Virus genome (UHGV): UHGV-0170870 | DNA length: 63,018 nucleotides | Reading direction: 5' to 3' (one strand) | Source: a virus | Shown: positions 6,981-8,323 of the stretch, in pieces | Layout: every line of letters begins with the position of its first letter | Numbering within the stretch: the first letter of the stretch is position 1 | Notes under the pieces: generated by a model | The model's database searches: none | What the model was told of the DNA's origin: nothing | Seen by the model: the letters and a program-made list of their open reading frames with translations, nothing else | Program-made: the position numbers and the translations under genes

Positions 6981-7105
6981 TTTTCTCCTACCAAAAATAA
7001 CTTCGTGAGGGGATTGCGTTTGCTAGAATCGTCAGGTAGAACTCCTACCAAGCTCCTGACACACACACAGCGGGAGCCCCAACGCAACCGAAAGGACTAA
7101 ACGCC

Positions 7106-8323
7106 ATGAATACCGTTGTTTCTCTCGCTCAGACTGTCGACGCTCAGCCGATCAACGCGGGCCGCGTCGACGTTTCCAAGGGCACCACCATCATGGACGC
7201 CTCCATGAACTGGATGCGTCGCCCGGCCGACGAGCGCTTCCTGTCTCTCCGTGATATGTGGAGGCACGCGAGGTCTCAGTCCCTTGTTTCCCGCGAGAAG
7301 GTCGTAGCGGTCAAGAACGTCGAGCTGCTTACGCCCGAAGTGCAGACTCGTGACGACTTCAACAAGCTCCGCGTCGGTTTGAACGTCGGCGATGGCTTCG
7401 AGAGCTTCAACTTCTCGCACTGGTCGTTCGGCCAGCTCTCGCAGCTCGCGGGTGCTCCGCCGTCCTATCTGCGCACGCTTCCGTCGCCCATCGTCGCCGA
7501 CGCCGTGATGTACGGCCTCCGCAACAACCGCTCCAATCCCGAGGCTAAGTTCTACACGTCGGACAAGCAGTTATTAGCGGCTACCGGCCCCGACTATGGC
7601 CGTATCCCGAACCACGAAGTGATCGAAGCCGTGGGCAAGATCGCCGGTGACGGCGTCTCGAACGACGCGGCCTGGCGCGTGCCCGGCATGATGTCATGGT
7701 CGACCATGATGTACGACCCCTTCCACCCGGTCACCACGGACACGACCACGCTCTTCATGAGCGACCGCGACATGTTCATCTTCCTCACCGATCCGCATCG
7801 CCCCATCGTCGTCGGCAAGACGAAGGACGGCATGGACGACGTGATGTATCGCGGCTTCATCATCTCGCAGTCCGAGGTCGGCAAGTCGTCGCTCTGGCTC
7901 AAGGCCTTCCTCTTCCGTGGCGTGTGCTGCAACCGCATCATCTGGGGCGCGGACAACATCGAAACCGTCCGCATCTCGCATACCAAGGGCGCACCGGAGC
8001 GATGGATTCGCCAAGTCGAGCCCGCCCTGATCGAGTACGCCAAGGCGTCAGACGCGAAGATTGTACAGACCGTACAGAACGCCAAGGCCGCGCAGATCGC
8101 GCAGGACGACGACGAGATGGTAGACTGGCTCAACAATCGCGGCCTCTCGCGCAGCCGTGCTCGCTCCGTCCTCGAAGCCGTAGAGAGGGAAGAGGGCCGC
8201 AAGGCGCGCACGATCTGGGACGTGACCCAAGGCGTCACCGCCATCGCTCGGGAGCTTCCCAATACTGATGACCGCGTCGAACTCGAAACCCTCGGTGGCA
8301 AGCTTTTCGGCCTCGCCGCCTAG
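7106..8323 (+). CDS. DUF932-like phage/plasmid-related protein
   Basis: 405-aa ORF; overall similarity by eye to the DUF932/TIGR03299 family; first gene of rightward operon. Confidence 0.45.
   Translation: MNTVVSLAQTVDAQPINAGRVDVSKGTTIMDASMNWMRRPADERFLSLRDMWRHARSQSLVSREKVVAVKNVELLTPEVQTRDDFNKLRVGLNVGDGFESFNFSHWSFGQLSQLAGAPPSYLRTLPSPIVADAVMYGLRNNRSNPEAKFYTSDKQLLAATGPDYGRIPNHEVIEAVGKIAGDGVSNDAAWRVPGMMSWSTMMYDPFHPVTTDTTTLFMSDRDMFIFLTDPHRPIVVGKTKDGMDDVMYRGFIISQSEVGKSSLWLKAFLFRGVCCNRIIWGADNIETVRISHTKGAPERWIRQVEPALIEYAKASDAKIVQTVQNAKAAQIAQDDDEMVDWLNNRGLSRSRARSVLEAVEREEGRKARTIWDVTQGVTAIARELPNTDDRVELETLGGKLFGLAA

Follow-up and report, generated by a model that had tools for sequence, protein, structure and literature searches.

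A start-associated leader at unrelated genes, in part behind type II hammerhead ribozymes, in an uncultivated phage genome

The viral genome UHGV-0170870, analysed here as a single stretch of 63,018 bp (hereafter the window), has a guanine-plus-cytosine (GC) content of 62% and a phage gene set, in which seven unrelated, non-structural genes are preceded by nearly the same leader of 20–25 bases, with the consensus CGAAAGG, 5–6 bases, AACGCC, and then the ATG. Six of the seven copies are placed where ribosomes load afresh, three of them after a divergent intergenic region or a terminator and three after type II hammerhead ribozymes, and in related phages the leader is conserved before genes that are not homologous to one another. 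With rather better than even confidence, these copies are taken to represent a lineage-specific, portable start-associated leader, by which translation initiation would be standardised and which would double as a module boundary.

Copies of the leader

The pattern AAAGG-N3-8-ACGCC-N0-2-ATG is matched seven times in the window against 0.03 matches expected from shuffles, and all seven matches end in the ATG of an open reading frame (ORF) and are oriented with the gene, the starts being 7106 and 14197 (plus strand) and 23509, 22898, 22023, 21690, and 20696 (minus strand). Two identical 19-mers are found among them (at 14181 and 23507), where 0.01 would be expected. Neither the number nor the placement of the copies is random, and the structural region between 24 and 49 kb holds none. 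The shorter pattern ACGCC-N0-2-ATG has 16 matches (8.8 expected), and because every copy of it at a gene start is joined to GAAAG(G), the two halves of the leader are regarded as one unit.

Copy 1, GAAAGGACTAAACGCCATG (7090..7108, plus strand), starts the 405-amino-acid gene 7106-8323, the first of a rightward replication-module operon, whose product is the only one among the seven with a Pfam match, namely DUF932, a domain of unknown function. Copy 2, GAAAGGACAAACGCCAATG (14181..14199, plus strand), starts an 86-amino-acid Cys/His-rich ORF (14197-14457), and the same sequence recurs as copy 3 (23507..23525, minus strand) at the 85-amino-acid ORF 23509-23252, the first of a leftward accessory operon. 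The remaining copies are likewise on the minus strand. Copy 4, GAAAGGAAACAACGCCATG (22896..22914), copy 6, GAAAGGTACTAACGCCAATG (21688..21707), and copy 7, GAAAGGTACTAACGCCATG (20694..20712), stand directly behind hammerheads 1, 2, and 3 and start ORFs of 136 (22898-22488), 130 (21690-21298), and 60 amino acids (20696-20514), respectively, and copy 5, GAAAGGAAAACACGCCAATG (22021..22040), starts an 86-amino-acid ORF (22023-21763) with no hammerhead upstream.

The first-pass annotation of the window had reported nearly the same start context at 7088-7108 and 14178-14199 on the plus strand, and both sites read as it claimed (CCGAAAGGACTAAACGCCATG and CCCGAAAGGACAAACGCCAATG, respectively). Its third site is a genuine copy that had been misplaced by about 17 nucleotides: the interval given, 23490-23509, covers the ATG and the first codons, and the motif itself runs from 23525 to 23507 on the minus strand and ends in the ATG (23509-23507). 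The variant GAAAGGTACTAACGCCAATG, said to follow each hammerhead, is exact only behind the second (21707-21688), the third being followed by GAAAGGTACTAACGCCATG (20712-20694) and the first by GAAAGGAAACAACGCCATG (22914-22896). Two copies had escaped that reading, namely the one at 22040-22021 (minus strand) and a degenerate eighth copy, GAAAGTCACGCCGATG (8395..8410, plus strand), which starts the 134-amino-acid gene 8408-8812. The encoded proteins are indeed unrelated, the seven having no mutual similarity (best BLASTP E-value >5).

The leader and the other ribosome-binding sites of the phage

Genes were called crudely from codon usage and their upstream regions were then listed. Most window genes, about 42 by a crude count, have GGAG, AGGAG, or AGGA cores with spacers of variable length, and GGAG or AGGAG is found at all the highly expressed structural genes. 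The combination that makes up the leader is rare at other genes. The hexamer GAAAGG occurs 24 times on the two strands, and besides the seven motif copies, four occurrences lie 4–10 nucleotides before a start codon; among these, only the one at 15949 (a GTG, possibly a gene start) has the motif-like spacing of 10 nucleotides, the others standing 4, 5, and 8 nucleotides from an ATG. The distance from GG to ATG in the motif copies is always 10–11 nucleotides. Pairing of GAAAGGA with a 16S rRNA tail ending in UCCUUUC(U), a general form that may not be that of the host, corresponds to an aligned spacing of about 7–8 nucleotides.

Placement in transcription units

The starts at 7106 and 23509 belong to the first ORFs of two divergent operons, copy 1 being located in the divergent intergenic region before its gene (6979-7105). 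The two units share an upstream block, TTGCNN-N4-CGTYAGGT, with two matches against 0.13 expected: TTGCTAGAATCGTCAGGT at 7020..7037 (plus strand) and TTGCTGTATGCGTTAGGT at 23573..23590 (minus strand), the latter upstream of the leftward operon. The block at 7020..7037, which has no canonical sigma-70 match, is read as a putative promoter or operator. The third of these starts, 14197, lies about 120 nucleotides downstream of a terminator-like hairpin at 14044-14063. From the gene layout and the conservation we infer that transcription starts upstream of 7106, 14197, and 23509.

The leftward accessory operon extends on the minus strand from about 23600 to a terminator at 20378-20340 and comprises about eleven small ORFs with a GC content of 55–57%; the closing structure (20340..20378, minus strand) is a strong terminator-like hairpin of 17 pairs followed by a T run. 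Those cistrons of the operon that are free of the motif overlap or abut the upstream stop codon (TGAGCCAATG twice and TGACCAATG once), and to judge from these junctions they are probably translationally coupled.

Hammerhead ribozymes upstream of the leader

The three type II hammerheads of the accessory operon, all on the minus strand, are located at 22920..22972 (hammerhead 1; 27.5 bits against the Rfam family RF02276), 21711..21763 (hammerhead 2; 30.1 bits), and 20718..20775 (hammerhead 3; 28.8 bits), with cleavage predicted after GUC at 22948/22947 in the first, at 21739/21738 in the second, and at 20746/20745 in the third. Each folds as GGAC-GAAAC-stem III-GUC followed by stem I-CUGAUGA-GUCC, such that the catalytic core elements CUGAUGA, GAAA, and GUC are all present, loops close stems I and III, and stem II, which is open, is made of GGAC and GUCC. 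In all three, the 5' end of the hammerhead falls at the TAG stop codon of the upstream ORF, which hammerhead 1 overlaps, and the 3' end lies 6–10 nucleotides before CGAAAGG, and the three hammerhead-plus-leader units are about 95% identical across some 60 nucleotides.

The fold is supported by covariation among eight copies from four phages, in which 100% of the cells pair and 8 of the 16 pairs show compensatory changes, including A-U to G-C in the 4-bp stem II. The observed score was reached by none of 500 shuffles, and controls in which the alignment was slid paired in 29–45% of the cells. A search of the whole window with Rfam at gathering thresholds gave no match.

Some further features of these units were noted. 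Judged by eye, loop I and the spacer that separates the Shine–Dalgarno sequence from the AUG share a complementary stretch of 4 bp or more in six of the eight copies (UUAC/UAAC, GUUGU/ACAAC, and UGUU/AACA), the chance of a 4-bp match between loop I and a 25-nucleotide tail being about 30% by the author's own estimate; such complementarity was not seen by eye in five other type II hammerheads. Following the Shine–Dalgarno sequence, the hammerhead leaders read GGUAC, GGAAAC, or GGAUC and never GGAC, which is what four of the five promoter-proximal leaders have. When a GGAC-type leader was substituted, the predicted probability of stem II fell from 0.66 to 0.01 in hammerhead 2 and from 0.81 to 0.57 in hammerhead 3 and was essentially unchanged in hammerhead 1, so that the avoidance of GGAC slightly suggests, as far as these modelled folds go, a selection against misfolding. 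Another idea, that cleavage frees the leader from an anti-Shine–Dalgarno sequence, was discarded: the one CCUUUCG found, upstream of hammerhead 1, is part of the gene for a conserved protein and has no equivalent at the other two hammerheads.

Related phages and the genes behind the leader

Searches by terminase, by primase-polymerase, and by DNA pattern retrieved three uncultivated relatives, namely the phage of sequences L001 and L017 (73% terminase identity), contig 3300048929_000261 (sequences L036 and L278; 65% primase-polymerase identity), and contig 3300046501_000163 (sequences L069 and L075). All three possess a syntenic accessory operon with the leader, of which seven copies were counted in L036/L278 (three of them behind hammerheads), one in L001, and two in 3300046501_000163. 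The gene content of this operon is far from constant, only 3 small proteins of about 11 being shared between the window and L036.

The first-pass annotation had suggested that the motif could mark recombination points between modules, to be sought by comparing it across related genomes, and this comparison speaks for gene exchange at the boundaries. At 23509, the alignment of the upstream region and the leader to L001 and L036 reaches as far as the ATG, beyond which the ORFs are non-homologous; at 7106, the divergent intergenic region can be aligned to that of L278, in which AGAAAAGGGAAAACGCCAATG is retained and precedes a 51-amino-acid ORF, not the DUF932 gene. Two syntenic junctions thus keep the leader and swap the first gene, in accordance with its proposed role as a module boundary. 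The upstream block TTGCTGTATGCGTTAGGT is likewise kept in L001 and L036, and TTGCTAGAATCGTCAGGT is partly kept in L278. Orthologues of the gene at 7106 were found in viral contigs only in the same phage.

The association of leader, hammerhead, and gene also varies in other ways. The L278 homologue of gene 8408 has a GAGGGG Shine–Dalgarno sequence in place of the degenerate leader, and one gene family (MFGNFS.../MYFASG...) is preceded by a hammerhead and a different leader in L001 and by the motif without a hammerhead in 3300046501_000163.

The copies are homogenised within genomes. The 3' half of the hammerhead is 98.8% identical within genomes and 79% between them, and the tail plus leader is 82% identical within genomes and 55% between them, which is, on these sequence identities, concerted evolution. 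The leader is also nearly exact between hammerhead 1 of the window and copies a and b of L036.

Occurrence of the leader in other hammerheads and phages

An unbiased sample of 143 distinct tails of type II hammerheads of the GGAC...GUCC kind was drawn from viral contigs. Almost all of these hammerheads are followed by a Shine–Dalgarno sequence and an ATG within about 35 nucleotides, and the sequences used are varied: GGAG is found in 77 tails, GAAAGG in 14, ACGCC in 3, and CGAAAGG in merely 2, for which reason the latter was rejected as a property of the hammerhead family. The layout of hammerhead, Shine–Dalgarno sequence, and start codon is therefore general, and this leader is lineage-specific. 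Such a layout agrees with the report by Perreault et al. (2011; PMC3088659) of clustered hammerheads flanking genes in prophages, one of which is located 13 nucleotides upstream of a start codon.

The exact 20-mer CGAAAGG(A/G)CAAACGCCAATG has 18 matches in viral contigs, 17 of which fall at one orthologous site (L012-L029 except L017) upstream of a 134-amino-acid VRR-NUC-like gene in an IMG/VR gut phage family with 47% GC. Given that the flanks share nothing with the window and that about one such family would be expected by chance, the matches are treated as a probable coincidence. A looser motif scan of viral contigs gave mostly single chance matches, its useful yield among the matches listed being contig 3300046501_000163.

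A metagenome scan for a hammerhead together with the motif re-found the same phage along with 21 other matches, which were set aside as ordinary hammerheads with a closed stem II, GUCC-GAAA-GGAC-GAAAC-GCC, that fits the pattern by accident. The leader, GAAAGGAC-AAACGCC, is a single deletion away from the canonical segment GAAA-GGAC-GAAAC-GCC of such closed-stem-II hammerheads (L280-L303 except L299), and it is because of this resemblance that the scan mostly returned ordinary hammerheads. The one-deletion likeness of the leader to a hammerhead arm may reflect either ancestry or chance.

Proposed mechanism

In the reading favoured here, the leader would consist of an extended Shine–Dalgarno sequence, C-GAAAGG(A), an A/C-rich spacer of 10–11 nucleotides ending in AACGCC, and the ATG, and it would be used for the de novo loading of ribosomes rather than for continuation from an upstream gene. 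Its loading points would be the first ORFs of transcription units (7106, 14197, 23509, and, with the degenerate copy, 8408) and the ORFs that follow hammerheads (22898, 21690, and 20696), with GAAAGGA presumably pairing with a 16S 3' tail ending in UCCUUUC(U). At the latter ORFs, the predicted cleavage would give the downstream mRNA a 5' end made up of a 5'-OH, the stem I hairpin, a core remnant CUGAUGAGUCC, and the leader; the stem III hairpin would close the upstream product, and the two products would be joined only by the 4-bp stem II. Unrelated cargo genes would thereby receive an almost identical 5' untranslated region (UTR), and the 20–85 nucleotides repeated at gene starts would provide homology for cargo swapping, which would explain both the swapped cargo and the homogenised copies. 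The common translational control of the motif genes raised by the first-pass annotation is, judging from the shared start context, plausible.

A number of observations weigh against this reading. The element AACGCC is invariant and has no obvious partner in rRNA, as would be expected of the binding site of a specific factor, and the 16S tail behind the pairing idea is a general form that may differ from that of the host. The region around the Shine–Dalgarno sequence and start codon has a mean unpaired probability of 0.54–0.75, which, taken without a control set, is unremarkable and gives no clear signal. All three hammerheads, at 27.5–30.1 bits, score below the RF02276 gathering score of 37 (E 0.003–0.017 in a permissive 5-kb search), and their cleavage is a prediction. 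A canonical sigma-70 promoter was looked for at 7106, 14197, and 23509, and none was detected. Copy 5 (22023) starts an internal cistron, 22 nucleotides after a stop codon, with neither a ribozyme nor a promoter-like block before it. Finally, other first genes of transcription units, such as that of the late operon at about 24019, are devoid of the motif, so that placement at a first cistron is a tendency and not a rule.

The same observations may be taken a step further, to the tentative and distinctly less probable view that the hammerhead-plus-leader units are the joints of a ribozyme-delimited array of gene cassettes. Each block of accessory genes would then be released from the transcript as a separate mRNA, all of them with the same 5' UTR, the repeats would supply the homology for swap, duplication, and homogenisation among phages, and AACGCC might in addition be the operator of a translational regulator.

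Alternative explanations

An unlikely rival holds the motif, and above all AACGCC beside the start codon, to be an operator on the mRNA for a trans-acting translational regulator, a phage- or host-encoded protein or small RNA, that would switch a regulon of early and accessory genes as a whole. The RegA protein of T4 acts in this way, and a like role has been proposed for the start-associated sequences (SAS) of mycobacteriophages. In the present phages, AACGCC is (nearly) invariant in more than 16 copies from four genomes, with no evident role in pairing with rRNA, whereas the 4–6 nucleotides between it and the Shine–Dalgarno sequence vary; at gene starts, one half of the motif is invariably accompanied by the other, and the copies are confined to non-structural genes. 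The same pattern is presented by the SAS, whose bound factor was left open by the authors (PMC3203893). However, no candidate RNA-binding protein was recognised among the seven motif-gene products (six have no Pfam match and the seventh has DUF932), no complementary sequence resembling a small RNA was noticed, albeit in an analysis that made no dedicated search for one, and gene conversion among the copies could equally produce the invariance.

It is improbable that the copies are a historical residue, that is, paralogous remnants of duplicated hammerhead–leader junctions that were spread by recombination and function only as adequate ribosome-binding sites. The near identity of the three units over some 60 nucleotides, the homogenisation within genomes, and the almost exact leader shared by hammerhead 1 and copies a and b of L036 would all fit such a history. 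Yet in the hammerhead-free copies, which have no flanking similarity, CGAAAGG and AACGCC are retained at exactly the same distance from the ATG, and the motif has survived in phages that are only 73–79% identical in the large terminase and about 60–70% identical in the intergenic DNA around it.

Little probability is likewise assigned to two readings in which the motif acts at the level of the DNA or within the ribozyme, namely (a) that it is an asymmetric DNA site for a repressor or recombinase, after the manner of a stoperator, or (b) that it is a part of the hammerhead, as the pseudoknot partner of loop I. The stoperators of Cluster A mycobacteriophages are bound by the phage repressor at sites that are not tied to start codons. 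As (a) would have it, the copies of the leader are asymmetric and intergenic and all face the same way with respect to transcription, and an integrase gene is present in the phage; their fixed distance of 0–2 nucleotides to the ATG and their Shine–Dalgarno sequence, neither of which a DNA site would need, argue against a site of the stoperator type. As for (b), pairing of loop I with the 3' tail is common in type II hammerheads (PMC3088659), and the complementarity described above for six of the eight copies points the same way. Against this, four or five copies of the motif stand without any hammerhead, the motif is missing from other type II hammerheads, neither hammerhead 1 of the window nor copy c of L036 fits the complementarity, and a match of this size is not rare by chance, as estimated above.

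Lastly, the leader might be nothing but the generic optimal ribosome-binding context of the host, which the first-pass annotation had named as the outcome that would refute its proposal. A 16S 3' end of the general form ...CCUCCUUUCU, which may not be that of the host, is able to base-pair with GAAAGGA, the aligned spacing is near the usual optimum, and AAAGGA stands before a few other genes (8887, 35843, and 48094); but this reading is very improbable and, on a comparison made among the phage's own genes, is rejected for this phage, since most of these, including all the highly expressed structural ones, use GGAG-type Shine–Dalgarno sequences with variable spacers, no gene start has AACGCC without GAAAG(G), the type II hammerheads of other phages precede Shine–Dalgarno sequences of many kinds, and the exact 20-mer is found elsewhere only in one unrelated phage family at a single orthologous site.

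Comparison with known systems

The phenomenon closest to the portable leader is that of the SAS of Cluster K mycobacteriophages described by Pope et al. (2011; PMC3203893). Both are short, asymmetric, and conserved, contain a Shine–Dalgarno core with further conserved positions that are unable to pair with rRNA, and lie a few nucleotides upstream of starts, among which ATG is preferred; both occur in many copies of one orientation, before different gene families in the non-structural part of the genome, and are kept across related phages. All seven copies of the leader show this combination of position, orientation, gene families, and non-structural location. By sequence, CGAAAGG-N5-6-AACGCC falls outside the SAS consensus GGGATAGGAGCCC (13 bp, at most two deviations), and the leader is hence an analogue of the SAS and not a member. 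There are 11–19 SAS copies against 7–8 of the leader, and the phages and hosts of the SAS are unrelated. The leader also has no 17-bp inverted repeats of the ESAS kind, abuts the ATG, and is coupled to hammerheads or to the starts of transcription units. The function of the SAS, including the factor that may bind them, was left unresolved by their authors (PMC3203893).

A second analogue is provided by the PeSL cassettes (early promoter plus terminator stem-loop) of T4-type phages (Arbiol et al. 2010, PMC2839356; Comeau et al. 2014, PMC4122927). In both cases, short conserved regulatory motifs flank variable, mostly ORFan genes in a plastic region and offer homology for modular shuffling, and the leader, like the PeSL repeat, flanks genes that vary between close relatives. 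The PeSL elements are transcriptional, whereas those described here combine a self-cleaving ribozyme with a translation-initiation leader; and recombination between repeats, which is among the marks of a PeSL cassette, is here deduced from the homogenisation within genomes.

The hammerheads themselves resemble the type II clusters of prophages (Perreault et al. 2011, PMC3088659; RF02276). Three of them are packed into about 2.3 kb of a phage operon, where they border single genes or short gene blocks, the identities of which are inconstant among relatives, and the role proposed for such clusters is to cut a long transcript into mRNAs of gene length. The family description of RF02276 contains no leader common to ribozyme-linked and ribozyme-free starts. 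Unlike members of that family, the window copies score below the gathering threshold, have a stem II of 4 bp, and show no convincing pseudoknot immediately on the 3' side.

With regard to the consequences of cleavage, the RiboJ insulators (Lou et al. 2012, as summarised in PMC6993053) provide a parallel, as cleavage there strips off the variable upstream RNA, so that the remaining RNA begins at a defined position with a hairpin, behind which a standard ribosome-binding site is placed. As that summary presents it, the logic of RiboJ is that downstream expression becomes independent of context, an effect which the units of the window may be supposed to share; RiboJ is engineered from a satellite-RNA ribozyme, and the units of the window are natural and of type II. 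Cleavage at the RNase III processing sites of T7 has a like outcome, the processed RNA having a defined start at a hairpin and, behind this, a standard ribosome-binding site.

The phage genome and its other features

Besides the genes named above, the window encodes a large terminase of the lambda type (25023-26885), a primase-polymerase (11299-13758), a portal, an E-type capsid protein, a family A DNA polymerase, a DUF2800/PD-(D/E)XK nuclease, an SNF2 helicase, and an integrase. Its large terminase is less than 37% identical to that of any cultured phage, and a megablast search of three large parts of the window against GenBank phages returned only a 263-bp match to a Bradyrhizobium phage. 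Sequences of the identical phage (100% terminase identity) were found in assemblies of unrelated taxa (L005-L011), comprising Streptomyces iakyrus NRRL (a contig of 63,072 bp), Phycicoccus jejuensis, fragments in Streptomyces xylophagus, and a metagenome-assembled Eggerthellaceae genome from roe deer, as well as in the metagenome contig L299. The window has the appearance of a complete phage genome carried along as a sequencing or reagent contaminant, and the taxa of the assemblies do not reveal its host.

Several other non-coding features were noted. The intergenic region 8324-8407, between the DUF932 gene and gene 8408, contains TTGACG, an inverted repeat GAGTCG...CGACTC, and three direct copies of (CG)ACTCACA, and could be an internal promoter or operator; a repeated CGACTCACA is also present upstream of the degenerate leader copy at 8395. 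In the divergent control region between the accessory and the terminase-side operons, a palindromic block TGCATGC-N6-GCATGC (23697-23716, minus strand) and a conserved CACGGTTTGTTACA at about 23818, both of which align in L001 and L036, could represent operators. At the distal end of the accessory operon, two hairpins at 20333-20414 (minus strand) match the Rfam family ctRNA_pGA1 (RF00236) with 41.4 bits against a gathering score of 45 (E = 6.7e-6); the second of these is the operon terminator, and an equivalent pair of hairpins is found in L036. The adjoining non-coding stretch of about 800 nucleotides (approximately 19500-20330), with GTTCTG(C/A)GAA repeats at about 19670-19750 and A/T-rich spacers gttctgcgaattttcgttttctcgttctgagaaaagtcgttcagaggggg, is kept in L036 and is a possible origin or iteron region. 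Twelve consecutive C residues at 2925-2936 (minus strand), directly between the GGAG Shine–Dalgarno sequence and the ATG of gene 2924-2607, form a homopolymer tract whose length could vary.

Implications

Conserved start-associated sequences of phages have been described before and were never explained. What is new in the present case is their occurrence in an unrelated, uncultivated lineage with a different sequence, the tie to positions at which ribosomes load afresh, and a gene content that changes exactly behind the motif. If the mechanism proposed for the portable leader is true, the type II hammerheads of phage operons would serve to issue a uniform 5' UTR to each cargo gene, and the hammerhead-plus-leader units would amount to a natural version of the design in which a ribozyme insulator is followed by a standard ribosome-binding site. 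Should the units prove to be the joints of a cassette array, they would constitute a phage counterpart of integron or PeSL arrays that is built on catalytic RNA. The leader may also lend itself to use as a portable part for gene expression, and in metagenomic phages it might help to locate cassette boundaries.

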